Source: Vibrio tubiashii
Lineage (GTDB): Bacteria > Pseudomonadota > Gammaproteobacteria > Enterobacterales > Vibrionaceae
Assembly: GCA_000775715.1 (NCBI GenBank)
Contig: JRWQ01000001.1
Span: 510,225 to 542,224, forward strand
DNA length: 32,000 nucleotides
Direction: 5' to 3'
Of this stretch, positions 3,475 to 18,037 are shown piece after piece. Numbering within the stretch: the first letter of the stretch is position 1; each line of letters opens with the position of its first letter. Position numbers and translations under genes: made by a program. The notes under the pieces were generated by a model. The model did no database searches, was not told the origin of the DNA, and was given only the letters and a program-made list of their open reading frames with translations.

Positions 3475-4278
3475 TTACTGAGGCTGACGTTTCATATCGT
3501 CATGAACCATGGCATTGTCCAGTTCGTGGATTGTACCGATACGCACACGTTTTTCCGGTGCCAGCTTTTCGTACTCAGTGAGATAGATATCGCTGTGAAT
3601 GTGCTCGGCAATCATTTTCACCAACAGGCGATTGTTGGTATATAAGCCTACCGTCTCTTCTCGATGTGAGAACATTAAGCCCTGCTTCATATCGGCAACA
3701 ATCATAAAGCGGTGGGAAGGATACTCAGTCTCTTCATTATCTGAGCGAGCGTAGAGCTCAATTTTTGGATGAGGTACCGCGATGCGATTAAATGAGAAGG
3801 CGATAATTCGCACTCCACGCTCAGCCGCCTCAATCAATTCTGCCGAGAATCTTGGGTCAAGTTGGAAGTCGGTGTTGAGGTAGATTTCGACTTGAGCTAA
3901 CTCGATCACCTCTTTGGCTTTCTGGACTAAGTTGTCGATACCAGTGACGTTGTACACAAACTCTTTTTCCTCAGTGAGCATCATTCGTGACAACTCTTTC
4001 TTAAGGATATGGATGTTTTCTACGGTACTCTTTTCGATCTGGTTAAAGATAAGCTCTGGAGATTTGGCTTCGTACTCTTTAGTGTCTCCATCGGACATAA
4101 AGATATAACCATTTTTGTATAGATTATCGATAGAAGAGTAGACAGAAGAACGCGACAGAGAGATATCTTTCGCGATTTTGTAGCCACTGGCACAACCGTT
4201 TTTGAGAAGGTTGATATAGACCAAGGAATCCGTTTTCGTAAAACCAAAATTCATCAACTTAGTAACCAAGTCTGACAC
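3475..4278 (-). CDS. TrmB-family sugar-responsive transcriptional regulator
   Basis: The N-terminus ...DLVTKLMNFGFTKTDSLVYINLLKNGCASGYKIAKDISLSRSSVYSSIDNLYKNGYI matches the TrmB winged-HTH pattern, followed by a ~180-aa C-terminal domain. The track ORF begins at a TTG (4302). I prefer GTG 4278, which has SD AGAGGA 6 nt upstream. Confidence 0.65.
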   Translation of the reverse strand: MSDLVTKLMNFGFTKTDSLVYINLLKNGCASGYKIAKDISLSRSSVYSSIDNLYKNGYIFMSDGDTKEYEAKSPELIFNQIEKSTVENIHILKKELSRMMLTEEKEFVYNVTGIDNLVQKAKEVIELAQVEIYLNTDFQLDPRFSAELIEAAERGVRIIAFSFNRIAVPHPKIELYARSDNEETEYPSHRFMIVADMKQGLMFSHREETVGLYTNNRLLVKMIAEHIHSDIYLTEYEKLAPEKRVRIGTIHELDNAMVHDDMKRQPQ

Positions 4279-4335
4279 GGTTTGTCCTCTAAAATTATTC
4301 AATATTGTGTTCCACTTTGGTTAGATTATCACTGG

Positions 4336-5235
4336 TTAAGCTCTAAGCCTAACTTGACGTGCAAGTAGTTGCGCTTTTGTTTGAGCTGCTCCGTGAGCAA
4401 TAGAAAAATCCTCGTAGGGCAGAGCCAGCATTGCTGGCCGCGGGGAGAGGTTGCAATAGCGACTAAGGGCAACTTTTAGGTCACTCGAGATCTGTGCATA
4501 GCGCGACGCGCTGCCAAGTATTAGCAAGCTTCTTGGCAAGCTATTTTCGATATGTGGCTTTAGCGCGCGAGCCAGTTGATCGATGTAGCGTCGATAGGTA
4601 CGTGCGGCAATAGGGTCTCCAGATTCTAATGCGCAAAATATCTCTTTTACATTGGCGCGTTTAAGCAGGATCTGCTCATACTGTCGCTCCAATCCTGAAA
4701 CCGAAACAAACTGTTCAGTACACGCTTCACTGGCACAACTGCAGCTAGTAACGAGGCCATCAAGGACGAAGTCATAGTCCGGAAGAGCGACATGCGCCCA
4801 GGGTATCGAGCGCATGGTGCGTTGAGAAATACCGCGACGAGTTCTACTGCAAGAGTAAAGCTCGCATTCGTTATCGAGTACAACGCACAGCACTTCTCCG
4901 AGTTTTATCTGCGATAAGACATCAGGTGAACTCTGTAAACCAGCTTCGACAAAGTTGCTCTTGCTGCAAGGGATTCGATAGTGCTGTTCAATCAGGGTGG
5001 GTAACGCCAATTGATGACGCTCAAGCCAGACTTGAACTTCCTCAGTCATCGCCAACCCAATCGAACAGAATGTACTGTATGCCCATTGGAAGTTGTCCAC
5101 CAACTGAAACACCTGCTGTTTAACTTCCAGCGCGGTCTGATTGAGGCTTTGCTGACTCGTATATACGGTATTGAGCTGCTCATCAAGCACCGTCGCCTTG
5201 AGTTGAACTTTGTCTATCGAGATCCCCAGATGCAT
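4336..5235 (-). CDS. ROK/ASKHA-like protein with degenerate kinase motifs
   Basis: Start moved to ATG 5235 (SD GAGGGGA upstream). The track start at 5289 would overlap the GH13 gene. CSCASEACTEQ aligns to the ROK zinc motif CxCGxxGCxE. The N-terminal MHLGISIDKVQLKATVLD aligns to the DIGGT phosphate loop, but the glycines are lost. Confidence 0.5.
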   Translation of the reverse strand: MHLGISIDKVQLKATVLDEQLNTVYTSQQSLNQTALEVKQQVFQLVDNFQWAYSTFCSIGLAMTEEVQVWLERHQLALPTLIEQHYRIPCSKSNFVEAGLQSSPDVLSQIKLGEVLCVVLDNECELYSCSRTRRGISQRTMRSIPWAHVALPDYDFVLDGLVTSCSCASEACTEQFVSVSGLERQYEQILLKRANVKEIFCALESGDPIAARTYRRYIDQLARALKPHIENSLPRSLLILGSASRYAQISSDLKVALSRYCNLSPRPAMLALPYEDFSIAHGAAQTKAQLLARQVRLRA

Positions 5236-5248
5236 GCTTTCCCCTCGC

Positions 5249-7018
5249 TTAGTCGTACCAGTAACCGTAAGCCGGTAAACTGATGTCACGATTATCTAGC
5301 GTTACGTTGGCCGGAGAGTCGCTGTTGTTGATCAGGAAGCGTCTTGAGCCGCGTTGATAGCCGACAACGGTAGGATGATGAGTCTCTATCCAGTCGATGT
5401 ATGGTTGATTAAAGCTGTCATCGCCTTTTCTTAGCTCGATCAGTTGTTCAATGAAGGCTTTGAAATCGAGTTCTGTCTGGTTTGGAGACCAGTTCATACA
5501 GCGGCGGTTATCTTCAAGTCCCATGCCTTTTCTCCCTTCCATCGCGACTTCGCCGCCATAGTAAATGCAGGGAGCACCAGCTTGAGTGAACATAAACAGA
5601 TAGGCGAGTTTCGCCCGACGAAGATCGTTACCGCAAAGACTAATTAAGCGAGTGGTATCGTGGCTTTCTAGCAAGTTAAACATCGCTTCGTTAACGTTGC
5701 GTGGATAGGCCAGATAAGCGCTTGTGACAGTCTCCATAAACTGCTGTTTGTTCTGGGCATCAAGGGCAAAGTAATCGGTAATGGCCTGAGTCATTGGGTA
5801 GTTCATTAACGAATCGTACTGATCACCACGCAACCATGGCATACCTTCGTGCCAAATCTCCCCCAAAATGTAGCAGTCTGGTTTTACCTGCTTAACTACG
5901 TTGCGAAACTCGCGCCAGAACTGGTGGTCAACTTCATTGGCGACATCCAGTCTCCAGCCGTCGATGTCGAACTCTTCTACCCAGTAGCGAGCGACATCTA
6001 ACAGGTATTCACGACATGGCTGATGTTCAGTGTTGAGCTTTGGCATCTCAAGCACGTTGCCAAACGTTTCGTAGTTGAAGTTCCAGCAGTCCCACTCCGA
6101 TTTATCAGTGTCGGGATAAACGGGGAACTGATTGATCCAAAACCAGTCTGCGTATTGAGATTTTTCGCCGTTCTTAACCACGTCTAACCAGAACGGATGT
6201 TGATCGCCGATGTGATTGAACACCGCGTCGAGCATCACTTTCATGCCTCGATCATGCGCCTCTTTAATCAGAGCTCTGAATGCTTCATTGCCGCCAAAGT
6301 GAGGATCGACATTGAAGTAATCAACTGTGTCGTACTTATGGCTGGTATTGGCAGTAAAGATTGGGCACAGATAGAGTCCGTTGACCCCCAAATTTTTAAG
6401 GTAATCGAGATGTTCAATTACGCCCCACAAATCACCGCCCATAAAGTTGCTTGAGGTAGGAACGCTTCCCCATGGCTCAGCATTTTTCGGGCTTATTTCT
6501 GGTCTTCCGTTGGCAAATCGTTCAGGAAAGATCTGATACCAAACGGTCGACTTGGTCCATTGTGGAGTGACCAGAACATCTTTTGGATTGATATAAGGGA
6601 AGCAGAAGAAATTGCTCAGATTGCTCAGCTCAGTTTCTTCCGCTGCCTTGCTGTGTAAATCAACGGTGCGTTTCTCGCCAAACAGTATTTTTTCACCATC
6701 TTTGCCGTAGAGAATAAAACCGTAACGACTGCGGCGTTTAGGCGGTGTAAACTCCGCAAACCAGTGGTCGTGATGTTCGGTGACACCTTCTCGTTCCATT
6801 GGAACTTCGTTGCCACCGACCCAGCCATGAGCATCGCTGCCGCCCAGGTTACCACCGTCCAAGCCTCCTTCCGCCCAGCGGTAAGGGTCACCTATCCATA
6901 AGCTAACGCGCTCAACTTCGTCTTTGGCACATTTAAGTCTCAGGTGCAGAGTCTGCTCATCGTAAGCGTAGCTGTCCGCACTTTTAACTGTGTGTGTTAG
7001 TGAGCTTCGGGTAATCAT
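5249..7018 (-). CDS. Cytoplasmic GH13 cyclomaltodextrinase / neopullulanase / maltogenic amylase-type enzyme
   Basis: 589 aa with no signal peptide. GH13 regions DAVFNHIG (I), GWRLDVANEV (II), LGEIWHE (III) and LLESHDT (IV). It has the extra N-terminal ~130-aa domain typical of this subgroup. Confidence 0.85.
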   Translation of the reverse strand: MITRSSLTHTVKSADSYAYDEQTLHLRLKCAKDEVERVSLWIGDPYRWAEGGLDGGNLGGSDAHGWVGGNEVPMEREGVTEHHDHWFAEFTPPKRRSRYGFILYGKDGEKILFGEKRTVDLHSKAAEETELSNLSNFFCFPYINPKDVLVTPQWTKSTVWYQIFPERFANGRPEISPKNAEPWGSVPTSSNFMGGDLWGVIEHLDYLKNLGVNGLYLCPIFTANTSHKYDTVDYFNVDPHFGGNEAFRALIKEAHDRGMKVMLDAVFNHIGDQHPFWLDVVKNGEKSQYADWFWINQFPVYPDTDKSEWDCWNFNYETFGNVLEMPKLNTEHQPCREYLLDVARYWVEEFDIDGWRLDVANEVDHQFWREFRNVVKQVKPDCYILGEIWHEGMPWLRGDQYDSLMNYPMTQAITDYFALDAQNKQQFMETVTSAYLAYPRNVNEAMFNLLESHDTTRLISLCGNDLRRAKLAYLFMFTQAGAPCIYYGGEVAMEGRKGMGLEDNRRCMNWSPNQTELDFKAFIEQLIELRKGDDSFNQPYIDWIETHHPTVVGYQRGSRRFLINNSDSPANVTLDNRDISLPAYGYWYD

Positions 7019-7034
7019 AAATTAGATCCTGTTA

Positions 7035-7868
7035 TTATTCTTTTACTGCACCACTCACTAAGCCTGTGGTGATGTGTTTTTGAGTCGCAACAAAAAGCAG
7101 AGTGATCGGTATTGCTACCAGCAGAGAGCCTGCGGCAAACAGAGTGAAGTTTTCTGCCGAGTTAGAGGTGATCCAACTGAAAATACCAATAGCCAGAGTC
7201 ATTTTCTCTTCACTGCGTAAGATCAGAGTTGGCAGAATGAAGTCCATCCACGGGCCAGTAAATGACACCAGAGCGACAAACACCAAGATAGGTCTCGCCA
7301 GAGGTAAGATGATCTCGATAAAAATAGTCATATGCCCTGCACCGTCGATTTTTGCTGCCTCATCGAGCGAAGTCGGAATCGCGTCAAAGTAACCCTTCAC
7401 TAGCCAAGTCATAAACGGTAGCGAGCCAGCGACGTAGACAAACAACAGACCGGCGTAGGTATCGATCATATTAAGTTTCGATAGCAGGATATAAATCGCT
7501 GTCATCGATAAGAACGCAGGGAACATCTGCAATACCAGCACACCCATCAAGACATTGCGTTTGCCTTTAAATCGATAGCGTGAGAACACGTAAGCGGTCA
7601 TGGTGACCACCACCAGAGAAATCAGCATATTCGCCGTTGCCAGAGCGAAGGTGTTGAGATACCACTGCAAATAAGGGGTATCCTGAAACAGCGCCACATA
7701 ATGCTCTAGTGAAAAGCTCCAACCGGAAAACGAGGAGCTGAACATATTGCTGCCCGGTTTGAAGGACGCCAATACTGTCCAGATAACCGGCCCTAAAACC
7801 AGTAATGCATTGGTTAACAGGAACAGATAGACCAAACCTGTGGCTAATTTTTGCAACAGAAACTTCAT
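7035..7868 (-). CDS. Maltodextrin ABC transporter permease, MalG-like
   Basis: 277 aa with about 6 TM segments and the EAA loop DEAAKIDGAGHMTIFIEIILP. Its start overlaps the stop of the upstream permease gene (TAATG). Confidence 0.85.
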   Translation of the reverse strand: MKFLLQKLATGLVYLFLLTNALLVLGPVIWTVLASFKPGSNMFSSSFSGWSFSLEHYVALFQDTPYLQWYLNTFALATANMLISLVVVTMTAYVFSRYRFKGKRNVLMGVLVLQMFPAFLSMTAIYILLSKLNMIDTYAGLLFVYVAGSLPFMTWLVKGYFDAIPTSLDEAAKIDGAGHMTIFIEIILPLARPILVFVALVSFTGPWMDFILPTLILRSEEKMTLAIGIFSWITSNSAENFTLFAAGSLLVAIPITLLFVATQKHITTGLVSGAVKE

Positions 7869-9154
7869 TACTTCATCCCCACATCATCGCTAAACGAAGA
7901 CATCCGTCGGAACTGCCAGATCGCAATCACTGACAAAAACAAGAAAATAATTATCGAAATCACAGAGGCGATTTGGTACTGCTGGAAGTCGAGTGTGAGT
8001 TTGTAAATCCAGGTAATTAAGATGTCGGTATGCCCTGCAAATCGGTACTCAGGGTTGATCGGTCCGCCTTCGGTTAACAGGAAGATTGCGCCAAAGTTAT
8101 TGAAGTTATGGGCAAACGTCATCACCAGAGAAGGAGCGACCTGATGCAACACCATCGGTAGGGTGATTTCCCTGAACTGCTGGAACTTGTTGGCGCCATC
8201 GACCTCACTAGCCTCATAAAGATCTTGAGGTATGTTGGTTAAGGCTCCTGAAATAAGCAGCATGAAGTAGGGAGCACCGACCCAGACGCTGACCGCTATC
8301 ACCGTGACTTTCGCCATCCATGGATCGGAGAGAAAAGCAACGGAATCAAAGCCCCAGCTATTCAGGGTTGCATTGACCGGACCGACACCATTTAATAGCA
8401 GTCGGAACATCAGCAGAGTAACGAAAGCAGGAATCGCATAAGGTAAAATAAAAACGAAACGCCACGCTTTTTTCGCTTTGATGTTCTTGTTGGACAACGC
8501 CAGTGCCAGCACAAAACCAAAACCACAGGTACATATAGTCGCCAGAATCGCCCACATCACTGTCCAGGTTGCTACGCCAACAAAGGTATTCGACCAAATT
8601 CGCAGTTCAAACAGGGCGATAAAGTTCTTAAACCCGACCCAGTCAACCAAGTTCCTTGGCGGAATATGATGAGGCGCTGAGTAGTTGGTAAATGAGACCA
8701 GTACGGTGATGACAATCGGCATAATGATAAAGGCGATACTGGTTAACATTGCTGGAGAAAGCACCAGAAAAGCAAACTGTCGGTCATATATCGCTTTGAT
8801 CTGCTCGGACGCTGACATCTGACACGGCTGGCAGGATTTGGCATCATTGATGTTAAGTGCATAAAGGCACAGAAAAACAAACACCGCGATCAGAGCAATC
8901 ACACCTTCAACCAACAGGAAGACAGAGTGATCGCCCTGAATGATGGTGAAGCCTTCGCGTGTCTGAGCCACATCGCCAAGAGTAATGAGCTGCTTTAACG
9001 CCAGGCTAAGCTCTGGAATGCTAAAGATAAAAAGTAGCTGAATGAGCAACCAGACCAAGCCTTTTACCCAATGGCCCTGACGCATTTGCGTCAGGCCCAT
9101 GATAAGAACTGAAGCGTTGATCATTGGTTGCATTCGAGTTTGAGACAACAACAT
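7868..9154 (-). CDS. Maltodextrin ABC transporter permease, MalF-like
   Basis: 428 aa, multi-TM, with the EAA loop YEASEVDGANKFQQFREITLP. SD AGGAG sits inside the 3' end of the SBP gene. Confidence 0.85.
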   Translation of the reverse strand: MLLSQTRMQPMINASVLIMGLTQMRQGHWVKGLVWLLIQLLFIFSIPELSLALKQLITLGDVAQTREGFTIIQGDHSVFLLVEGVIALIAVFVFLCLYALNINDAKSCQPCQMSASEQIKAIYDRQFAFLVLSPAMLTSIAFIIMPIVITVLVSFTNYSAPHHIPPRNLVDWVGFKNFIALFELRIWSNTFVGVATWTVMWAILATICTCGFGFVLALALSNKNIKAKKAWRFVFILPYAIPAFVTLLMFRLLLNGVGPVNATLNSWGFDSVAFLSDPWMAKVTVIAVSVWVGAPYFMLLISGALTNIPQDLYEASEVDGANKFQQFREITLPMVLHQVAPSLVMTFAHNFNNFGAIFLLTEGGPINPEYRFAGHTDILITWIYKLTLDFQQYQIASVISIIIFLFLSVIAIWQFRRMSSFSDDVGMK

Positions 9155-9157
9155 CTC

Positions 9158-10384
9158 TTACTCCTGTAAACTGATCTGTTCTTTGATCACTGACTCAGCA
9201 CGCTTTAACACCTTCTCTGGTGACTTGTCATTGACCCATAATGAAGTCATGGCACTTGCCATTGGTGACCACAAGTAACCCATTTCAGGAATTGACGGCA
9301 TAGCATCGGCGAAGTAACCCTGACCAATGATCGCATAAGTCGCTTCATCAGCATCGACGATTATCTCCTCCATAACAGCCTGAACTGGCGGAATCGATTT
9401 CGTCATCTCGTAGCGTTTTTTAAGCATCTTGTCGCTACTTAGGTAGCTGGCAAACAGTTGAGCGGCTTTAGGGTAGTTGGTGAAAGAAGAAACGACCGCC
9501 AGACGAACTGTTGAGAAAGTTCGCGGTTGCTTGCCATCCAGAGTGGGAATTGGAATGACGCCATAGTTCACTCCAGAAGCCTCGTAGCCCTGAATTGCCC
9601 ACGGGCCATCGATGATTGCTGCAACCTTACCTTCACTGAACAAACCTCGTCTTACCTGAGGGTTACGCATATCCATTGGGTTAGCACTGTTTGCAGCCTG
9701 TAGCTTTTTCATCGCTTGTAAGCCTTGCTGTGCTTGCTCCGAGGCGATGCCGATATCTTGGGCATTGGTGCCGTTATCGCCAAATTCGTAAGCTCCATAT
9801 AGGGTCAGGAACATGCGTGATTCATAGTAATTCTGCACGTCCCAAAGCAGAGCATATTTGTGTTCTTTGTTGTCATTAAATGACTTAGAGAACTCAATGA
9901 TCTGTTCAAAAGACTCGGGAGCCTGTGGAAGAAGATCCTTGTTGTAGAACAGAGCGGTTGTGGCAAAACTTACCGGGAAGCCGTAGCTTTTCCCCTCAGA
10001 ATTTGCTGCGTTGACAGCACTTTGTAAGAAGTGAGCGTTGATGTGATCAGCAGAGACCAGATTTTCCATCGCACCACCAGCTACGACTAAGCGACCAAGC
10101 AGGTCATGCTCAATTTCAGCCACATCAGCGACTCGAGCTGAGCCTCCATCCTGGATTAATCGTGAAGCGGCATCAATCGGTGCCAGTCCACGGAAAGTGA
10201 ACGCCACCTCATAACCCGAATCCTGATTGAACTGGTTGGCGGCGTACTTCATATAATCGACGGTTGTGTGATCGGTCCAGACTAACAGATTTGCACCTGG
10301 TTCCGGTTCAATCGGCTGTGCCATGGCAGTGGCGCTAACAAGAGTGGTGAGCAGTATTTGACTGGTCAATAACTTGGTTTTCAT
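9158..10384 (-). CDS. Periplasmic maltodextrin/cyclodextrin-binding protein (MalE family)
   Basis: The signal peptide MKTKLLTSQILLTTLVSATAMA|QP is followed by LLVWTDHTT..., a MalE-like start. I use ATG 10384 rather than the track TTG at 10396. It is the first gene of the minus-strand operon. Confidence 0.85.
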   Translation of the reverse strand: MKTKLLTSQILLTTLVSATAMAQPIEPEPGANLLVWTDHTTVDYMKYAANQFNQDSGYEVAFTFRGLAPIDAASRLIQDGGSARVADVAEIEHDLLGRLVVAGGAMENLVSADHINAHFLQSAVNAANSEGKSYGFPVSFATTALFYNKDLLPQAPESFEQIIEFSKSFNDNKEHKYALLWDVQNYYESRMFLTLYGAYEFGDNGTNAQDIGIASEQAQQGLQAMKKLQAANSANPMDMRNPQVRRGLFSEGKVAAIIDGPWAIQGYEASGVNYGVIPIPTLDGKQPRTFSTVRLAVVSSFTNYPKAAQLFASYLSSDKMLKKRYEMTKSIPPVQAVMEEIIVDADEATYAIIGQGYFADAMPSIPEMGYLWSPMASAMTSLWVNDKSPEKVLKRAESVIKEQISLQE

Positions 10385-10393
10385 TGCTGCATC

Positions 10394-10426
10394 CAATTTA
10401 GTAGTTCACGATATACTACTAAATTG
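10394..10426. promoter_or_regulatory. Perfect 12-bp inverted repeat CAATTTAGTAGT-N9-ACTACTAAATTG (candidate operator or 5'-UTR hairpin)
   Basis: Read directly from the sequence. Arms are 10394-10405 and 10415-10426. It ends 9 nt upstream of the SBP start codon. A related ACTACTACTTTTAAAT occurs at 10712-10727, near the porin gene. Confidence 0.5.
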
Positions 10427-10474
10427 AGGCGAATGGAGATTTTAGTCAATTGAAAACTGCTTAAAATAGCGTCT

Positions 10475-10496
10475 AAATGTGATCTAAATCGACTAA
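10475..10496. promoter_or_regulatory. Candidate CRP site AAATGTGATCTAAATCGACTAA
   Basis: The left 12 nt are identical to the CRP consensus AAATGTGATCTA. The right half is weak (TCGAC versus TCACA). It lies in the divergent promoter region of the two sugar operons. Confidence 0.35.
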
Positions 10497-10617
10497 ATTG
10501 CTTATCTCACAACGAATTAAAGCCGGTTTCGGCTTGCTTACATTCTTATTGTTAGTTTTATTTTTAATGGCTATTAACTCGAATCAATCGCTGTTTTTAG
10601 TGACGCTCTTCAAATTA

Positions 10618-10635
10618 TCACCCGAATTCGAGTGA
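10618..10635. promoter_or_regulatory. Near-perfect 18-bp palindrome TCACCCGAATTCGAGTGA
   Basis: 16 of 18 positions are symmetric. It is preceded by TA, giving TATCAC, and lies about 140 bp upstream of the porin start. Confidence 0.4.
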
Positions 10636-10774
10636 CCAAGATCTCATTTAAATCCCATTCAGCGAGCAAATAATATTCAGATACAGAACAATGACTAGGC
10701 GTTCAGGCTGAACTACTACTTTTAAATCCGATTAATATCAATAGAATCCACCTCTATGAGGTTAAGGAAACACT

Positions 10775-11812
10775 GTGAACAGGACTGTACTCTCGCTCAG
10801 TATTGCTTGCGCTCTGAGCTCTGCACCTGCTGCTTTTGCTGCGGAAAAAGGACCGGCTCCCCAACAAATGGGCGGTAATATTCTGACTCAAGCCTTAGAT
10901 TTTGGCGGCCACGTTGGAACGTCGATTGAAATTGAAGACAAAGATATTACCAACTACAAAACCTGGGGTGGGCAAACAGAAAATGAACGCACTACCACCC
11001 ATGAAGTGATTGGACTGTTTTATAAAAACGCCCACTGGAACTTCTCGTCTTTGTACGCTTTTAAGTTGACTGACCGTGTTAAACGCAGTCAGGATCGCTC
11101 GTACACGGAAACGGAAGATGGCTATAAGCACCTGATTTCAATTGATAAAAAGTTCTCATTACCGAACGGTTTTGAAACTGGCGTTATCTATGACCTTGAA
11201 TACTCACTAGGTACTATTGCTACCACTGCTGGCGTGAGCAACCTGCGTACTACCAATGCAGAACACAGCATTCGCCCTTATCTCAACTTTTACAGCAATG
11301 AGTACGATGCAGGCTTCCAATCCAACCTTGAATACCTCTACAACGACGAAGATAAATCGGCGTGGGGCACTCGAGTTGAAGAAGGTTACTCGGTGTTAGT
11401 TAAGCCCTATAAACGTTTTGGTAACTGGGAGCTGGGTGTAGAGTTCTACTACCAGATTAAAGACAACAAAGCGCATAACAGTGATGGCTCAATTAACGAA
11501 ATTAGTGACTTTACTGAAAAGTATGTTGAGCCAATCGTACAGTACAGCTTTGAAGATGCTGGTACCTTATACGTTCGTGCCCGTTACGGTGAAAACGAAA
11601 CCAAACATACACAAGGTTGGGCTGCAGGAGAGCAGTACTTCAAAGATATTCGTAAAGCCACTATGGGTTACGAACAGTCTGTCGGTGATAACTGGTTGCT
11701 GAAAGGTGAGTACGAGTGGGCCAAAGATACTGAAACCTTCACTCAGCTTGCTGGAGAGGAGAAGGTCGTTGAGCAGAACACCTTCTTGCTCCAGGCTATT
11801 TACCGTCTGTAA
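10775..11812 (+). CDS. Outer-membrane beta-barrel porin, CymA-like by size and context (cyclodextrin/maltooligosaccharide channel)
   Basis: GTG start with SD AAGGA. Signal peptide MNRTVLSLSIACALSSAPAAFA|AEK. The mature protein is ~323 aa, rich in alternating aromatic/polar beta-strand patterns (YEWAKD, FLLQAIYRL at the C-terminus). It is the first gene of the plus-strand sugar operon. Confidence 0.55.
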   Translation: MNRTVLSLSIACALSSAPAAFAAEKGPAPQQMGGNILTQALDFGGHVGTSIEIEDKDITNYKTWGGQTENERTTTHEVIGLFYKNAHWNFSSLYAFKLTDRVKRSQDRSYTETEDGYKHLISIDKKFSLPNGFETGVIYDLEYSLGTIATTAGVSNLRTTNAEHSIRPYLNFYSNEYDAGFQSNLEYLYNDEDKSAWGTRVEEGYSVLVKPYKRFGNWELGVEFYYQIKDNKAHNSDGSINEISDFTEKYVEPIVQYSFEDAGTLYVRARYGENETKHTQGWAAGEQYFKDIRKATMGYEQSVGDNWLLKGEYEWAKDTETFTQLAGEEKVVEQNTFLLQAIYRL

Positions 11813-11840
11813 AAATCGTTTATTTGCTTAAGGAAATCCT

Positions 11841-12866
11841 ATGATCACAGTTTCAGAAATTGCCCAGTTAGTTGGCGGCCAGATAGATGGTGACCCGAGT
11901 TTAACTGTGGATACGATTGTGCCGCTGTATAGCCCTGATGAAGGGGGATTAGCTATCGTATTTTCTAAATCTGATCTCAAAATGATCGAAAGTTCAAAAG
12001 CGGATGTGATCATAGGACCTGATAGCATTTTAACCAGCAACGCCAGATGTAAGATAGTGATTGAGTCGCTTAAAGCGCAAACACTGAATGCCCTACTACG
12101 TTATTACAAAGTACATAAGTATCAACTGTTTGAGCAGGGTAATACCTCAGACAATCCCGATGTCTATATCGGCAAGCACTGCACTATTGGCAACAACTGC
12201 CACTTTATGCCTGGCGTAAAAATCATGAATGGTGTGACCATTGGCGACAATGTTGCAATTCATGCCAATACGGTGATTAAAGAGGGCACGGTGATTGGCA
12301 ATAACGTTACTATCGACTCCAACAACGCCATCGGTAATTTCAGCTTCGAATATATGAATGGCCAACATGGCGAGTTCGAACGAGTGGAAAGTGTCGGACG
12401 AGTTATCATCGAGGACGATGTTGAGATCGGCTGTAACAACACTATAGACCGTGGCACTCTGGGAAATACCGTGATTGGCAAAGGGACTAAGATAGATAAC
12501 CTAGTCCAGATTGGTCATGACTGTAAAGTGGGCCAACATTGTCTGCTGGTTTCTCAGGTAGGCTTAGCCGGACACACCGTTCTTGGCCAACATGTCATTG
12601 TTCACGGACAGGCTGGCACCGCTGGCCATATCACTATCGGTGACCACTCAGTCATCAAAGCTAAATCAGGCGTCAGCCAGTCATTTCCTGCTCATAGCGA
12701 CCTATTTGGTTACCCAGCCAAAGATGCTCGTGCTTATTACAAAAACCTGGCGGTGCTTAACAAGCTTACCCGCCAGTTTGATAGCAAAAAACACTCTAAA
12801 ACTACGCAAAAATCTGACCAGCCTAGCCACTGGCTTAAACGCTTATTCACTGGCTGTAAGGCCTAA
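11841..12866 (+). CDS. LpxD-like hexapeptide-repeat (left-handed beta-helix) acyltransferase paralog
   Basis: The N-terminus [29 protein letters not shown]... resembles the LpxD uridine-binding domain. Long LbH repeats follow. [46 protein letters not shown] is colinear with the E. coli LpxD catalytic-His region, as I remember it. Confidence 0.7.
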
Positions 12867-12884
12867 TTCAATCGTTAAGGATTT

Positions 12885-13370
12885 ATGATGAAAAAAGTCA
12901 TTCTACCTCTATTACTCAGTGCTCTTGCTGCTGGCTGTTCCAGCACCAGTGAAAATACCAACCAAGTTATCCCGACCAATGCGGATAGTCTGCTGGCGAA
13001 ATGTGATTTGCCAACGGTTGAGGATCGCGGTCCGATTCGTCCGTCACTGTTTGTCGTCGGAACCTTTGATGAAGGTCAGTGGATTCACCTGGAAGACCGC
13101 GAAATGAGCCATAAGGGCGATGGCATCTATCAGGTTGTTCATCAAGAGAAAGCCGGTGTGGTTAATGTCCAGTTTGCAACTATGAACTGGAACCCGCAAT
13201 TCACAGTGTCGGGACGCAAAATGGGCGTCAATCAGGAAATCGCTCTGAAGCGCGGTGGTTTTGCTAAAAACACCCGAGTCGAAATCCCTGCTGATGGCGA
13301 GTATGTCTGGTCAATTCAGATTGGCGAAGATAAAAAGCCAATTCGCGCCATGATTGCCACTTGTCAGTAA
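12885..13370 (+). CDS. Small lipoprotein, possible carbohydrate-binding beta-sandwich
   Basis: Lipobox LSALAAG|C after MMKKVILPLL. The mature ~140 aa contain FVVGTFDEGQWIHLEDREMSHKGDGIYQVV...VQFATMNWNPQF, a CBM-like aromatic pattern (inference). Confidence 0.5.
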   Translation: MMKKVILPLLLSALAAGCSSTSENTNQVIPTNADSLLAKCDLPTVEDRGPIRPSLFVVGTFDEGQWIHLEDREMSHKGDGIYQVVHQEKAGVVNVQFATMNWNPQFTVSGRKMGVNQEIALKRGGFAKNTRVEIPADGEYVWSIQIGEDKKPIRAMIATCQ

Positions 13371-13376
13371 TACCGT

Positions 13377-13399
13377 GCCGCCAGAGTTATTCTGGCGGC
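13377..13399 (+). other. Intercistronic hairpin GCCGCCAG-N7-CTGGCGGC
   Basis: Perfect 8-bp GC-rich stem between the lipoprotein and ATPase genes, with no U-tract after it. Confidence 0.4.
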
Positions 13400-13472
13400 G
13401 TTAAGTTCATAGCTTAATGCACAAAGGTTGTGTCGTAAGTTATGAGTTTATAAAGCTTTATTTGGAGTACCC

Positions 13473-14612
13473 ATGGCAACAGTTAGCCTAAAACAAGTAG
13501 AAAAACAGTATGACAACGGCTTCAAGGCGGTACAAGGGATTGATCTCGAGATTAATGAAGGCGAATTCATGGTGTTTGTCGGCCCATCAGGCTGCGCTAA
13601 ATCGACCACACTAAGAATGATTGCTGGTCTTGAATCGATTTCATCTGGTGATGTTCATATTGGTGATCGCAGAGTCAACGATTTACCACCGAAAGATCGC
13701 GGAATCGCGATGGTGTTTCAAAACTACGCTCTTTACCCGCACAAGACAGTTTTCGACAACATGGCTTTCGGTCTAAAGATGGCGAAGAAACCCAAAGATG
13801 AAATTAAGAGAAGGGTTGAAGAAGCGGCAGAGAAATTAGAAATCACTGATCTCCTCTACCGTAAACCAAAAGAGATGTCTGGTGGTCAGCGTCAGCGTGT
13901 GGCGGTTGGTCGCGCTATTGTTCGTAAACCGGATGTATTTCTGTTCGATGAGCCACTATCGAATCTGGATGCCAAGCTGCGTGTCTCTATGCGGGTGAAA
14001 ATCGCCCAACTTCATCAGTCTCTTAAGGATGAAGGCAATCCGGCAACCATGATTTATGTTACCCACGATCAGACTGAAGCTTTGACGCTCGGTGACCGTA
14101 TCTGTGTTCTGAATCAGGGCAAGATCATGCAAGTTGATACGCCAGCGAACCTTTACAACTACCCAGCTAATCGTTTCGTTGCTAGCTTTATCGGCTCTCC
14201 GGCAATGAACCTAGTCGATACAGCGCTGCGTCGTGATGGTGAGAATCTTATCGTCGAAATTGCTCCGTCTGCCCGCATTCTGATCCCGAAAGCAATGCAA
14301 GCGGAGCTTGAGCAGTACGTCGACAACCCAGTCTGCTTTGGTATCCGTCCGGAGCATATCTCACTGGCACAAGAGGGTGAAACATTGAATACCTTCGAAG
14401 GCAAGCTGTCAGTCGTTGAAAATCTGGGGAACGAAAAATACCTCTATTTCACTGTTGGTGGCAAAGAGCTGATTGCCCGAGTGCAAGATCAGTCGATCAC
14501 GACAGCAGATATTGGTCGAACTTTCCGTTTCAACCTCAATACTGAATTCTGCCATATCTTCGATTTTTACAATGAAAACAACCTAATTCACAGTCGACCC
14601 TACTCGGCTTAG
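13473..14612 (+). CDS. Sugar ABC transporter ATPase, MalK/CymD/MsmX type
   Basis: Walker A GPSGCAKST, signature LSGGQRQRV and Walker B VFLFDEPLSNLD, plus a C-terminal MalK-type regulatory domain. Colinear with E. coli MalK as I remember it. Confidence 0.9.
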   Translation: MATVSLKQVEKQYDNGFKAVQGIDLEINEGEFMVFVGPSGCAKSTTLRMIAGLESISSGDVHIGDRRVNDLPPKDRGIAMVFQNYALYPHKTVFDNMAFGLKMAKKPKDEIKRRVEEAAEKLEITDLLYRKPKEMSGGQRQRVAVGRAIVRKPDVFLFDEPLSNLDAKLRVSMRVKIAQLHQSLKDEGNPATMIYVTHDQTEALTLGDRICVLNQGKIMQVDTPANLYNYPANRFVASFIGSPAMNLVDTALRRDGENLIVEIAPSARILIPKAMQAELEQYVDNPVCFGIRPEHISLAQEGETLNTFEGKLSVVENLGNEKYLYFTVGGKELIARVQDQSITTADIGRTFRFNLNTEFCHIFDFYNENNLIHSRPYSA

Positions 14613-14638
14613 TTAATGACAATAACGGGGAACCTCTA

Positions 14639-16603
14639 ATGATAAAACGGACACTGATTTGCAGCGCTCTGCTTGCGACAATGGCCATCGGAGGCGGATT
14701 TTCTGCACCAGCAATAAGTGCAGAAACCGCGGCTGACAGTAGCTACGATTTCAGGCAGGAGACTATCTATTTCGTCTTCTTAGATCGATTTAGTGATGGC
14801 GATGCGACAAACAACAGTGGCAATAACCCGTTGACGTACGACCCTAACAACCTCAAAAAGTATGTGGGTGGTGACATTAGAGGTTTGATCAACAAGCTGC
14901 CGTATCTCAAATCTCTCGGTATCACGGCGATATGGATTACTCCGCCGGTAGATAATGCCGACAACCTTGATGTTAATGGTGGGGCTGGTTACCACGGCTA
15001 CTGGGGTAAAGACTTCTTCCGCGTTGATGAGCACTTAGGCACCATGGACGACTTTAAAGAGTTGAGCCAGTTGATGCACAGCCCTGAATACAACATGAAG
15101 CTAGTACTGGATTATGCGCCAAACCACTCGAATGGTAACGATGAAAATGAGTACGGCGCCCTGTACCGTGACGGCCAGTACATTACTGATTACACCACTG
15201 ACGTTGCTGCTGGCACCAACTGGTATCACCACAATGGCGGTGTAACCGACTGGAATAACTGGTATCAGGTTCGTAACCACAATCTATTTAACCTTTCTGA
15301 CTTCAACCAGTCTAATGCTCAGGTTTACAACTACCTGTTGGATGGCGCTAAATTCTGGATTGATGCAGGTGTTGATGCCATTCGTATTGATGCGATTAAG
15401 CACATGGATAAAGCGTTTATCCAGCAATGGACAGGTGACATCTACAACTACGCATCGACTATTGGCCGCGATGGGTTTTACTTCTTCGGCGAGTGGTTTG
15501 GTGCCAGCGCAACGACAACCATAGGTATTGATGGTTATGCGATCGATTATGCCAATACTTCAGGTTCGGCACTGCTCGATTTTGGCTTCCGTGACACCTT
15601 AGAACGTGTGCTAGTTGGTCGCAGAGGCAACACCATGCAGACGTTAAACAGCTATCTGGAAACTCGCAGCAATGTGTTCACCAGCGATGACTGGCAGGTG
15701 GTATTTATGGACAACCATGATATGGCTCGTATCTCGACCGCGCTGCGTTCGACAGCCAGCACGTTCGGCCCAGGTAACAATGAAGAAGGGGGCGGCCTGT
15801 CAGAAGCGTTTGCCAAAAAACGCGTCGACCTGGGCTTGGTTGCGACTATGACGGTGCGTGGTATACCAGCCATCTACTACGGCACGGAACATTACAGCGC
15901 AAACTTCTCGACCAATGCGTTTGGTCAGGTTGGTAGCGATCCATACAACCGCGAAGTCATGCCAAGCTTCGCTCAGGACAGTGAAGCATTTAAGATCATT
16001 CAAGCTTTGACTGAGTTGAGAAAAACCAGTCCTGCGATTCAGCAAGGTAGCTACAGTCAGAAGTGGCTCAACGACGACATTCTGGTTTACGAACGTAAGT
16101 TTGAAGATGACGTTGTGCTAGTGGCTCTAAACCGAGGTGCTGCAACCTCAATTAATGTCTCTGCATTGTCTCTGGCGGACAACTACTACACCAGCCTGGT
16201 TGGTAGCGATGGTGTGACGGTATCTCAGTCTTCTGCGACGCTGAACCTTGACCAGAATGAAGCGATTGTCCTGCATGGCAAGACAACCAGTGGTGGCGGT
16301 AACACAGATCTTATCGACGTGACTTTCACTTGCAGTAACGGTTACACCCAGTGGGGACAAAACGTTTATGCAGTTGGCAGTGCTAGCCAGTTGGGTAGTT
16401 GGGCGCCAGCGCAAGCAGTGAAACTGGATCCAGCCGTTTACCCAACATGGCAAGCAACCATTCAGGTTCCAAGTGGCGAGTCCTTAGAATGGAAATGTCT
16501 GAAGCGTTCAGAAAGTGATAGCAGTGCGCTGATTGAGTGGCAATCGGGTGGCAACAATACGGTGAATACCAGCACACAAACTCAAACCAGCGGCGCATTT
16601 TAA
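14639..16603 (+). CDS. Secreted GH13 enzyme with C-terminal CBM20; best fit is cyclomaltodextrin glucanotransferase (CGTase, GH13_2-like)
   Basis: Has a signal peptide (...APAISA|ETAA). DRFSDGD, GYHGYWGKDFF, DYAPNH, AIRIDAIKHM, FFFGEWF and FMDNHDM are colinear with CGTase regions. NLFNLSDFN aligns to NLYDLADLN, with an aromatic residue at the central cyclisation position. The C-terminus WGQNVYAVGSASQLGSWAPAQAVKL...WQATIQVPSGESLEWKCLKR is a CBM20 starch-binding module. Confidence 0.7.
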   Translation: MIKRTLICSALLATMAIGGGFSAPAISAETAADSSYDFRQETIYFVFLDRFSDGDATNNSGNNPLTYDPNNLKKYVGGDIRGLINKLPYLKSLGITAIWITPPVDNADNLDVNGGAGYHGYWGKDFFRVDEHLGTMDDFKELSQLMHSPEYNMKLVLDYAPNHSNGNDENEYGALYRDGQYITDYTTDVAAGTNWYHHNGGVTDWNNWYQVRNHNLFNLSDFNQSNAQVYNYLLDGAKFWIDAGVDAIRIDAIKHMDKAFIQQWTGDIYNYASTIGRDGFYFFGEWFGASATTTIGIDGYAIDYANTSGSALLDFGFRDTLERVLVGRRGNTMQTLNSYLETRSNVFTSDDWQVVFMDNHDMARISTALRSTASTFGPGNNEEGGGLSEAFAKKRVDLGLVATMTVRGIPAIYYGTEHYSANFSTNAFGQVGSDPYNREVMPSFAQDSEAFKIIQALTELRKTSPAIQQGSYSQKWLNDDILVYERKFEDDVVLVALNRGAATSINVSALSLADNYYTSLVGSDGVTVSQSSATLNLDQNEAIVLHGKTTSGGGNTDLIDVTFTCSNGYTQWGQNVYAVGSASQLGSWAPAQAVKLDPAVYPTWQATIQVPSGESLEWKCLKRSESDSSALIEWQSGGNNTVNTSTQTQTSGAF

Positions 16604-16681
16604 TTCATTGTTAACCAGTCTCGCTTCTAGGGACTCTATACCCAGCTAGGGGTATTTCAGGTAGCGACACGCTGCCACTTT

Positions 16682-16714
16682 AAGGCCTTAGGTAACTATC
16701 TAAGGCCTTTTTTA
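16682..16714 (+). terminator. Rho-independent terminator of the plus-strand sugar operon
   Basis: Perfect 10-bp stem AAGGCCTTAG/CTAAGGCCTT with an 8-nt loop, followed by TTTTT. Confidence 0.85.
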
Positions 16715-16747
16715 TGAAGGCAGGAATGTTGCTCCTCCAATTCAAAG

Positions 16748-17830
16748 TTAAGCAACACAAATTCCGTACTTCGGCAGCACATCTCTGATAATCGTTAGCC
16801 TATAAGTTTTCAGTGCATCATGGAAAAGCTTCCAATCTGAATTTAAGAACGACTCTTTATATTTATACGTAACCAAATCCGCTGACTGAGGCGATGCCAT
16901 AGCTTTGCCTCTGGCTATTTCTTTCCAGCTATTTTTTCCGCTCACCTCAAAAGTCAGTTCTACAGCAGGAAAACCAAACTCGCCACGAGAAATGCGTTTC
17001 AGCCATTCCTTATGACGATCTTCACCATCTTCATGTTTAATATCTTGAAATGCTGCCTTCAAAATGAGCTGCTTGTCATTGGGTAAATCCGCTTGAGCGT
17101 CAATATCCATGTTTTGATCTTCCTTGATAAAGCACTTAATTGCCTTGTACATTTGATTCGCCGCACTCAAGAAATCCTCAGTATTGTTTCTTGTAACCTT
17201 ATCACCCCTCCCGTTAACATAACTCCACTCGGCATAAGGACGGTCAGGAAAAGAGAGTGCGGGACCATGACCCAGAGGAGAAATTGTAGAGATACTCCAG
17301 TTAACAATATTGTCTCTTACTCTAGCCAATAAGCTACTATCTGAATTTGATTCGATTTGTTCTACCTGGTTAATCTCATGACTTACGCCAGCAAACCCCT
17401 GATGAGCAAAGGTATCGGCGTAGACGTGCATTGCAATACCCATCATGTGCAGCCCAAAAGAAGAATTCCTATACGCTGCCACTGCTTTTAGCATATCTCG
17501 AGCTACTGGGCTGTCAGGTGTACAGACCAAACGCTGAATAAAACCACCCTCAGGAATAGTGTCAGAGGGTTTACCTTGATTACCTGGGAGGAAGTGAAAA
17601 GGAATCCATGCTAGGTGATTAGCAAGCTCATTGCCATTTCGATAATCGAGCATTTTATGAGCGGAAGAGATACGATTAAACATCGCCCCGTTATCAAACC
17701 GCACTGGATCTGAATTGGTTGCTTCGTCAACGTATTGAGCACAGTAAGCTAACTTTTCTGCATCGCTATGTGTCATTCCAGCGTATCTAGCAACAACATA
17801 AGTGAGTGAATGGTGTCCATCTATTTGCAT
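16748..17830 (-). CDS. Hypothetical protein with a His/Asp-rich pattern (possible metal-dependent hydrolase)
   Basis: Start set to ATG 17830, with SD GGGAGA 7 nt upstream; the track start at 17863 is a TTG. Motifs: DGHHSLTY, YVDEATN, SSAHK, MHVYADTFAHQGF and LGHGPALSFPD. No signal peptide. I recognise no family with confidence. Confidence 0.55.
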   Translation of the reverse strand: MQIDGHHSLTYVVARYAGMTHSDAEKLAYCAQYVDEATNSDPVRFDNGAMFNRISSAHKMLDYRNGNELANHLAWIPFHFLPGNQGKPSDTIPEGGFIQRLVCTPDSPVARDMLKAVAAYRNSSFGLHMMGIAMHVYADTFAHQGFAGVSHEINQVEQIESNSDSSLLARVRDNIVNWSISTISPLGHGPALSFPDRPYAEWSYVNGRGDKVTRNNTEDFLSAANQMYKAIKCFIKEDQNMDIDAQADLPNDKQLILKAAFQDIKHEDGEDRHKEWLKRISRGEFGFPAVELTFEVSGKNSWKEIARGKAMASPQSADLVTYKYKESFLNSDWKLFHDALKTYRLTIIRDVLPKYGICVA

Positions 17831-18037
17831 TTTAGCGTCTCCCATTGAGCAATATTTGTTCAATATAACCTTTTATAAAATGGCGTTATTTTATATAGGT
17901 TGGAGTTTGGTAAATTTAGTTATGACGCTCAGCGTTAAACCCTAATTAAGTGATTCCAATCAATACACCATGCGAATGTTGAGTGCACAATATGTTCACA
18001 CCAAGAATTTCTAATAAAACGAACGACAGGCCTGTTT

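Follow-up and report, generated by a model that had tools for sequence, protein, structure and literature searches.

Carbohydrate metabolism via cyclodextrins has been described in Klebsiella oxytoca M5a1, where it is encoded by the cym/cgt cluster, comprising cymA-J and cgt (Fiedler, Pajatsch and Bock 1996, cited in PMC8760340). The cgt cluster of Thermococcus, the cyc cluster of Bacillus subtilis and the cld, thm and thb clusters of the Thermoanaerobacterales follow a like logic, in which an extracellular cyclodextrin glucanotransferase (CGTase) is followed by import through a binding-protein-dependent ATP-binding cassette (ABC) transporter and by a cytoplasmic cyclodextrinase, although in these archaeal and Gram-positive clusters the genes stand in a different order and neither an outer-membrane channel nor a dedicated ATPase is encoded (PMC8760340). 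Within Vibrio, a 'cyclo-maltodextrin operon' is present in 100% of the V. paracholerae, 68% of the V. metoecus and 9% of the V. cholerae genomes examined, its gene list including a 'glucosamine N-acetyltransferase', a cyclodextrin porin, a binding protein, permeases, MalK, a neopullulanase and a CGTase; growth on alpha-cyclodextrin was seen for four of four V. paracholerae strains and for none of four V. cholerae strains (PMC8357300). Here we describe a cluster with the same gene set in a 32,000-nucleotide stretch of Vibrio tubiashii DNA (contig JRWQ01000001.1, positions 510,225 to 542,224; hereafter the window, to which coordinates refer unless another contig or locus is named), and we conclude that it is very probably the Vibrio orthologue of the K. 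oxytoca cym/cgt system. The host belongs to a different Vibrio lineage from those earlier strains, near V. brasiliensis, and its cluster is known here from the genes.

An earlier note on this DNA, made from its letters, had described eleven genes in two divergent operons, assigned each to a strand and a family, and placed a terminator behind the plus-strand operon; the open reading frame listing and family scans bear out all of this. The eleven genes, at 3475-16715, are intact and are arranged in the order J-I-H-G-F-E <> A-B-C-D-cgt, with cymE, cymF, cymG, cymH, cymI and cymJ read on the minus strand from 10396 to 3475, and cymA, cymB, cymC, cymD and cgt read on the plus strand from 10775 to 16603, ahead of the terminator. 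The genes and control elements are as follows.

3475-4302, minus strand: cymJ, short TrmB-family regulator (Pfam TrmB and Regulator_TrmB)
4336-5235 (open reading frame listed to 5289), minus strand: cymI, putative ROK-fold pseudokinase (Pfam ROK, C-terminal match only)
5249-7018, minus strand: cymH, predicted cytoplasmic GH13 enzyme of the cyclodextrinase/neopullulanase type, 589 amino acids (Alpha-amylase and Alpha-amylase_N)
7035-7868, minus strand: cymG, MalG-type ABC permease (BPD_transp_1; NCBIfam MalG, 1.8e-47)
7868-9154, minus strand: cymF, MalF-type ABC permease (BPD_transp_1; NCBIfam MalF, 1e-62)
9158-10396, minus strand: cymE, predicted periplasmic cyclo/maltodextrin-binding protein (SBP_bac_8 and SBP_bac_1; MalE model, 3e-48)
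10399-10421, no strand: putative operator 1, TAGTAGT-N9-ACTACTA, a perfect palindrome beside cymE
10478-10493, 10599-10614 and 10631-10646, no strand: three CRP-like sites, resembling TGTGA-N6-TCACA
10696-10718, no strand: putative operator 2, TAGGCGT-N9-ACTACTA, before cymA
10775-11812, plus strand: cymA, predicted cyclodextrin-specific outer-membrane channel (Pfam CymA, 532 bits)
11841-12866, plus strand: cymB, divergent LpxD-type acyltransferase (both NCBIfam LpxD models)
12885-13370, plus strand: cymC, predicted lipoprotein consisting of one CBM69 module, 161 amino acids (lipobox and profile match to 5x5s)
13473-14612, plus strand: cymD, MalK-type ABC ATPase (ABC_tran, OB_MalK and TOBE_2; MalK model, 3e-129)
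14639-16603, plus strand: cgt, predicted secreted four-domain (A-B-C-CBM20) CGTase, 654 amino acids (Alpha-amylase and CBM_20)
16682-16715, plus strand: intrinsic terminator (hairpin 16682-16709, T-run to 16715)

Comparison with the Klebsiella cym/cgt locus

Klebsiella loci were obtained from K. pneumoniae and K. grimontii DNA around the CGTase homologue and the neighbouring GH13 gene, and their products were compared with those of the window by pairwise BLASTP. This comparison, which the earlier note had proposed as a check, yielded eleven orthologues in the same order and the same divergent orientation. On the plus side the Klebsiella locus encodes CymA (350 amino acids), a hexapeptide protein (317), a small protein (156), MalK (375) and CGTase (655), and on the divergent side a binding protein (409), MalF (427), MalG (277), a GH13 protein (600), a 300-amino-acid protein with no Pfam match and a TrmB-family protein (267). 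Identities to the corresponding window proteins are 50% for CymA, 63% for CymB, 53% for CymC, 71% for CymD and 68% for the CGTase, and 64% for CymE, 66% for CymF, 75% for CymG, 65% for CymH, 27% for CymI and 72% for CymJ, such that ten of the eleven proteins are 50-76% identical and CymI is the exception. The two systems have in common the same four-domain CGTase, the CymA channel, the CymEFGD importer and CymH, and their control regions contain the same two operator sites together with CRP-like sites. An identical gene order is found in the Klebsiella loci L001-L005 and L015 and in the Vibrio loci L007, L008 and L010-L013. Gene identities and synteny, like the catalytic residues described below, are established by comparison, and the activities of the products are predicted from orthology.

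Several features that the earlier note had set apart from the enterobacterial system turn out to belong to it. The TrmB regulator and the degenerate ROK protein, said to be a different regulator set, both have Klebsiella orthologues at the same positions, and so do the two supposedly distinctive accessory genes, the LpxD-like gene and that for the small lipoprotein. By similarity and position, these four genes are cymB (LpxD-like), cymC (small lipoprotein), cymI (ROK-like) and cymJ (TrmB). The absence of malT, also read as a difference, is shared by the Klebsiella cluster, and the V. tubiashii genome has a malT-malPQ locus elsewhere.

The host is a marine Vibrio rather than Klebsiella, and the base composition of the two clusters differs. 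At a GC content of 0.468, compared with 0.443 in the remainder of the window, the V. tubiashii cluster is near-native in composition, whereas the Klebsiella clusters (L001, 1-11968; L004, 1-11547; L015, 2604-15948) have a GC content of 0.36-0.39, against 0.49-0.53 in the flanks of L001 and L015 and 0.42 in the short flank of L004. Because of this low GC content relative to the flanks, and because DDE transposase or rve integrase genes adjoin it, the Klebsiella cluster looks like a horizontally acquired low-GC island, and from base composition the cluster looks at home in the Vibrionaceae.

The predicted secreted glucanotransferase and the proposed route

Cgt has a signal peptide ending ISA-E and contains Alpha-amylase and CBM_20 matches. 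Its closest solved relatives are all CGTases, with E-values of 1e-101 to 1e-88, and ordinary amylases score about 50 orders of magnitude worse. In an alignment with the CGTase 1cgt, D251, E285 and D361 coincide with the catalytic triad D229/E257/D328, F217 coincides with the central Tyr195, and W205 and F287 coincide with the Phe183/Phe259 pair at subsite +2; a catalytic triad, a central aromatic residue and a +2 hydrophobic pair are the marks that separate CGTases from amylases (PMC8760340). Over its full length Cgt is 67-68% identical to the 655-amino-acid Klebsiella enzyme encoded at the same position, and among closer relatives it is 96% identical to a V. brasiliensis protein and 75-76% identical to proteins of the V. 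cholerae group, the homologues in V. brasiliensis, V. vulnificus and V. cholerae being named 'cyclomaltodextrin glucanotransferase' by NCBI. From the 68% identity to the Klebsiella enzyme we infer that Cgt is likewise capable of cyclisation.

The five-domain CGTases of Bacillus (GH13_2; 1cgt, 1cdg) share with Cgt the triad, the central aromatic residue, the +2 pair, the A, B and C domains and a C-terminal CBM20, but they have a D domain that Cgt is without, and the overall similarity is moderate. No TIG or D domain was found in Cgt by the family scan, its layout is not the classical five-domain A-B-C-D-E one, and its alignment with the Bacillus enzyme breaks off at about residue 470 of the latter and resumes at 577, a gap that corresponds to the D domain of about 100 residues. 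A degenerate D domain was considered and rejected, just about 13 residues being present between the C domain and the CBM20. CGTases with four domains (A-B-C-CBM20) constitute the Gram-negative type, of which the K. oxytoca M5a1 enzyme is the sole characterised example (PMC8760340), and since this is a recognised variant the missing D domain does not exclude membership of the CGTases.

In other loci the length of the match varies. In Photobacterium nomapromontoriensis (L009), V. sinaloensis (L010) and Vibrio sp. 99-70-13A1 (L011) the CGTase match covers about 515-528 residues at 61-63% identity, corresponding to homologues of 615-623 amino acids without CBM20.

The components that would act after the CGTase are also present. 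That the porin might be unrelated to CymA, a doubt raised with the earlier proposal, is excluded, as it matches the Pfam CymA model over its full length (532 bits, 6.9e-160) and the K. oxytoca CymA structures 4d5b and 4d51 at 1.6e-100, and is 50-54% identical to Klebsiella CymA. The importer consists of CymE, which has a visible signal peptide, CymF and CymG, together with its own MalK-type ATPase CymD, all of them 64-76% identical to their positional counterparts in Klebsiella. CymH has Pfam matches to Alpha-amylase (288 bits) and to Alpha-amylase_N (91 bits), the N-terminal dimerisation domain; its solved relatives are neopullulanase (1j0h, 2.5e-173), maltogenic amylase (1sma) and cyclomaltodextrinase (1ea9, 1.5e-146), and a signal peptide was looked for in CymH and none was found.

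Relative to V. brasiliensis LMG 20546 (L008), the DNA of the cluster is 91-100% identical outside 10369-11568, compared with 87% in the control region and 83-86% in mid-cymA. At the protein level CymA is 88% identical between the two and its neighbours are 96-100% identical. This local divergence would fit either diversifying selection or recombination acting on a surface-exposed channel.

The route proposed from these components would begin with the secreted four-domain CGTase, which would bind starch through its CBM20 and make cyclodextrins outside the cell, probably mainly alpha-cyclodextrin, as is the case for the Klebsiella CGTase. The cyclodextrins would diffuse through the CymA outer-membrane channel, be captured in the periplasm by CymE and be pumped into the cytoplasm by CymF and CymG with the CymD ATPase, where CymH would open the rings. 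The linear products would then pass to MalQ and MalP, encoded at a separate malT-malPQ locus in which malT and the divergent malP-malQ are located (C44:73453-81022). LamB porins are encoded elsewhere in the genome as well (C44:156146-157432 and C3:74546-75634, with a weaker third match on C1). The presence of malT-malPQ and LamB indicates that the organism has both maltodextrin and cyclodextrin systems, and the cym cluster would give alpha-glucans a second entry, parallel to the first, from which the classical maltodextrin enzymes are supplied. With the rest of the genome counted, the predicted route is complete, and the claim made in the earlier note for a full sequence of CGTase, porin, ABC importer and cyclodextrinase with the K. 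oxytoca logic is supported by an orthologous locus with the same eleven genes.

Several points weigh against this interpretation. The CBM20 of Cgt is nearer to the CBM20s of maltotetraose-forming amylases (7czj, 5e-30) than to the E domains of CGTases, and the product specificity of the enzyme is not readable from its sequence. The importer is not exclusive to cyclodextrins, to judge from the title of the CymE paper, by which Klebsiella CymE reportedly transports linear maltodextrin as well as cyclodextrin. Both the route in this strain and the regulatory model given below for CymJ, CRP and CymI are drawn from sequence and its conservation. Finally, some versions of the cluster may do without cyclisation, since related clusters have either an enzyme without CBM20 or no cgt beside cymD. 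The latter is the case in Vibrio sp. 99-8-1 (L014), where cymA-D and cymE-J are present and a tblastn search of the 7 kb that follow cymD (13709) gave no cgt homologue; this cluster may be a cyclodextrin 'scavenger' version that uses the CGTases of other cells.

An enzyme activity predicted from sequence, a missing D domain, a CBM20 most like those of maltotetraohydrolases, a binding protein whose reported substrates include linear maltodextrin and a genome in which LamB and malT-malPQ coexist with the cluster would all be compatible with a secreted GH13 enzyme that is a hydrolytic, maltooligosaccharide-forming amylase, in which case the cluster would be a second uptake system for linear maltodextrins with no more than a likeness to the cyclodextrin route. 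We regard this as improbable, as Cgt has 68% full-length identity to the Klebsiella enzyme and the four-domain layout of the characterised M5a1 CGTase (PMC8760340), has both F217 and the W205/F287 pair, and has CGTases as its top solved relatives, far ahead of any amylase, and as a dedicated CymA is encoded in spite of the existing LamB porins and cluster-bearing Vibrio strains grow on alpha-cyclodextrin (PMC8357300). Less probable again is that the cluster mainly scavenges cyclodextrins made by other microbes, with its own CGTase minor or dispensable, for although L014 retains cymA-D and cymE-J with no cgt homologue downstream of cymD, and CymA is patchy (33 of 172 sampled species) as for an accessory niche trait, cgt in the window is intact and co-oriented, begins 27 nucleotides after cymD within the operon, shares its terminator and is 89-99% conserved in close relatives.

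Accessory proteins and the control region

Four genes of the cyclodextrin cluster lie outside the enzymes and transporter components considered so far. A literature search for cymB, cymC, cymI and cymJ in the cyclodextrin system returned nothing relevant from the library searched, the matches being p-cymene genes or unrelated acronyms.

CymB scores 260 and 259 bits with the two NCBIfam LpxD models, above their cut-offs of 207 and 242.5, and its best solved match is LpxD of Chlamydia trachomatis (2iu8, 1.1e-47), followed by the LpxD structures of Pseudomonas, Acinetobacter and E. coli at 1e-28 to 1e-21. The catalytic His block is kept, with VQIGH in CymB aligning with VQIAH of 2iu8. As CymB is nearer to the Chlamydia LpxD and gave no match to the Pfam LpxD N-terminal domain model, it represents an unusual LpxD lineage. 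It is the second LpxD copy of the genome, a better-scoring lpxD (385 bits) being located beside an lpxA-like gene on contig C42; the C42 gene is the housekeeping copy, and CymB is not the enzyme of the cell's lipid A pathway. All the loci that were compared encode CymB together with the other cym genes. Other sugar operons also contain an acyltransferase whose use is unclear, as with lacA and maa.

CymC has the lipobox LAAG-C and matched no family in the general scans. A profile built from 18 CymC homologues matches the C-terminal starch-binding domain of the marine amylase AmyP (5x5s) with an E-value of 1.7e-42. The alignment pairs residues 23-159 with 12-148 and spans the whole mature protein, including two flanking cysteines (C40 and C160) that are invariant among the homologues. 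The AlphaFold model of CymC has a mean predicted local distance difference test score (pLDDT) of 66.5, and its best fold match is again 5x5s (1.1e-9, 34% identity), with weaker matches to the N domain of a maltohexaose-forming amylase from Klebsiella and to SusE with alpha-cyclodextrin. Family CBM69 was founded on the AmyP domain, which binds raw starch and, partly unfolded by itself, takes up its fold when beta-cyclodextrin is bound (PMC5355875, PMC10223318), and the moderate confidence of the CymC model fits a module of this kind that is partly unfolded until its ligand is bound. The profile and fold matches together argue that CymC is a free-standing CBM69, with the difference that AmyP is a GH13_37 enzyme with this module as its C-terminal domain, and in CymC the module stands alone behind a lipoprotein signal. 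CymC would then be an envelope lipoprotein that binds glucan or cyclodextrin, the binding itself being known for the AmyP module. A more speculative reading makes it a trap for cyclodextrin, tethered to the envelope, by which substrate would be drawn in through CymA, a passive channel. The lipobox cysteine is a feature of the Vibrio CymC, whereas the Klebsiella protein has a plain signal peptide without it.

The control region between cymE and cymA was compared across eleven orthologous intergenic regions (nine from Vibrionaceae, including the window, and two from Klebsiella), which were aligned by eye and then scanned. The palindrome of operator 1 is perfect in all nine Vibrionaceae regions and has one or two mismatches in Klebsiella; it occupies the stretch 15-37 nucleotides before the cymE ATG and follows a conserved TTGACT -35 box (10444-10449, minus strand). 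Operator 2 is 57-79 nucleotides upstream of the cymA start and has the same arms and spacing in all eleven regions. The pattern TAGKMGT-N9-ACTACTA has two matches in the window, against 0.09 expected from shuffled sequences, and no further copies beyond these two operators were found in the 4.14-Mb genome. The three CRP-like sites lie between the divergent promoters and occupy matching positions in the control regions of Vibrio, Photobacterium and Klebsiella, although the first of those in the window has three mismatches. MalT was considered as a direct local regulator and was dropped because its core box GGAKGA is missing on both strands of the control region in the window; it is missing likewise from both Klebsiella regions, and is seen in only two of the eleven.

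The TrmB family, to which CymJ belongs, is best known from the sugar regulators of the Thermococcales. CymJ matches Pfam TrmB, the winged-helix DNA-binding domain, over positions 1-68 of 68 (52.8 bits), and its match to Regulator_TrmB covers just profile positions 2-116 of 233, with about 48 residues left after the match. It aligns with Pyrococcus furiosus TrmB (3qph) and with TrmBL2 over residues 15-168, and its length of 267-275 amino acids is like that of TrmBL2 (262-264), unlike the 342-amino-acid TrmB chain of 3qph. TrmBL2 is a sugar-insensitive protein. We consider CymJ a probable local repressor, and the simplest model suggested by the conserved sites is one in which CymJ represses both promoters through the two operators and CRP probably adds catabolite control through its putative sites.

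CymI is the fast-evolving member of the cluster to judge from its alignments, with 27-31% identity between lineages (27% to Klebsiella, E-value 6e-18), and in the Photobacterium locus L009 cymI is missing from its place between cymH and cymJ. A profile of nine orthologues matches the NagK structures 7p7i and 2ap1 at 1e-15 to 1e-14, but the kinase motifs have decayed: DxGGT reads GISID, F, H or P stands in place of the catalytic Asp of NDAN, and the GTGxG and glycine loops are lost. The zinc and sugar-site motif is retained despite this loss, with WAH...C-x-C-G-x-E-x-C-x-EQ kept in eight of the nine orthologues. CymI would thus appear to be a catalytically dead ROK protein, or pseudokinase, derived from sugar kinases of the NagK type. 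A speculative extension, which we think doubtful, is that sugar sensing is split between the two proteins, with the short CymJ, seemingly without a sugar-binding subdomain, acting on the two genome-unique operators, and CymI sensing cyclodextrin or maltodextrin and relieving repression via CymJ. If true, CymI and CymJ would be a bacterial regulatory pair of TrmB plus pseudokinase that has not previously been described.

Start codons were revised using orthologue alignments and ribosome-binding sites. The start of cymI was moved to the ATG at 5235, which gives a protein of 299 amino acids and removes the overlap with cymH. For cymJ the start is probably the GTG at 4278, which is preceded by an AGAGGA ribosome-binding site and gives 267 amino acids, equal to the Klebsiella length, and cymE probably starts at the ATG at 10384.

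Distribution, surroundings and significance

The distribution of the cluster was measured with the Pfam CymA model. Within the genus, 33 of 172 sampled species have a match, and within the family 40 of 300, and by this measure the cluster is a patchy accessory trait. The same layout is found in V. aestuarianus, V. brasiliensis, V. sinaloensis, V. plantisponsor, several other Vibrio, a Photobacterium and K. grimontii. Gene set and order are shared by eight other Vibrio or Photobacterium species, with the exceptions that cymI is missing from L009 and cgt from L014.

At its right end the cluster is closed by the terminator, which has a 12-pair stem with 5 GC pairs, a 4-nucleotide loop and a T-run, and which ends the plus-strand operon. 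The left flank contains genes for a LysR protein and a zinc dehydrogenase and trpS, and the right flank contains genes for a DUF6765 protein and a SpoU methylase, all of them unrelated housekeeping or orphan genes. The first gene beyond the terminator (16748-17863, minus strand) encodes the DUF6765 protein, which is full length (335 bits) and is 99% conserved at the same position in Vibrio sp. M260118 (L006).

Since earlier work reports this cluster from other Vibrio species, the system is a known one, including in this genus, and its finding here is real but ordinary. The outcome is in part corrective, in that what had seemed unusual proves to be conserved in the classical Klebsiella system. 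The comparison makes modest additions, namely CymC as a CBM69, CymI as a putative pseudokinase, a short TrmB-family CymJ with two operators, and the apparent low-GC island in Klebsiella, and it proposes roles that can be tested for CymC as a binder, for CymJ with its two operators and for CymI as a pseudokinase. For the organism, it adds one more marine Vibrio, near V. brasiliensis, that is probably able to privatise starch as cyclodextrins.

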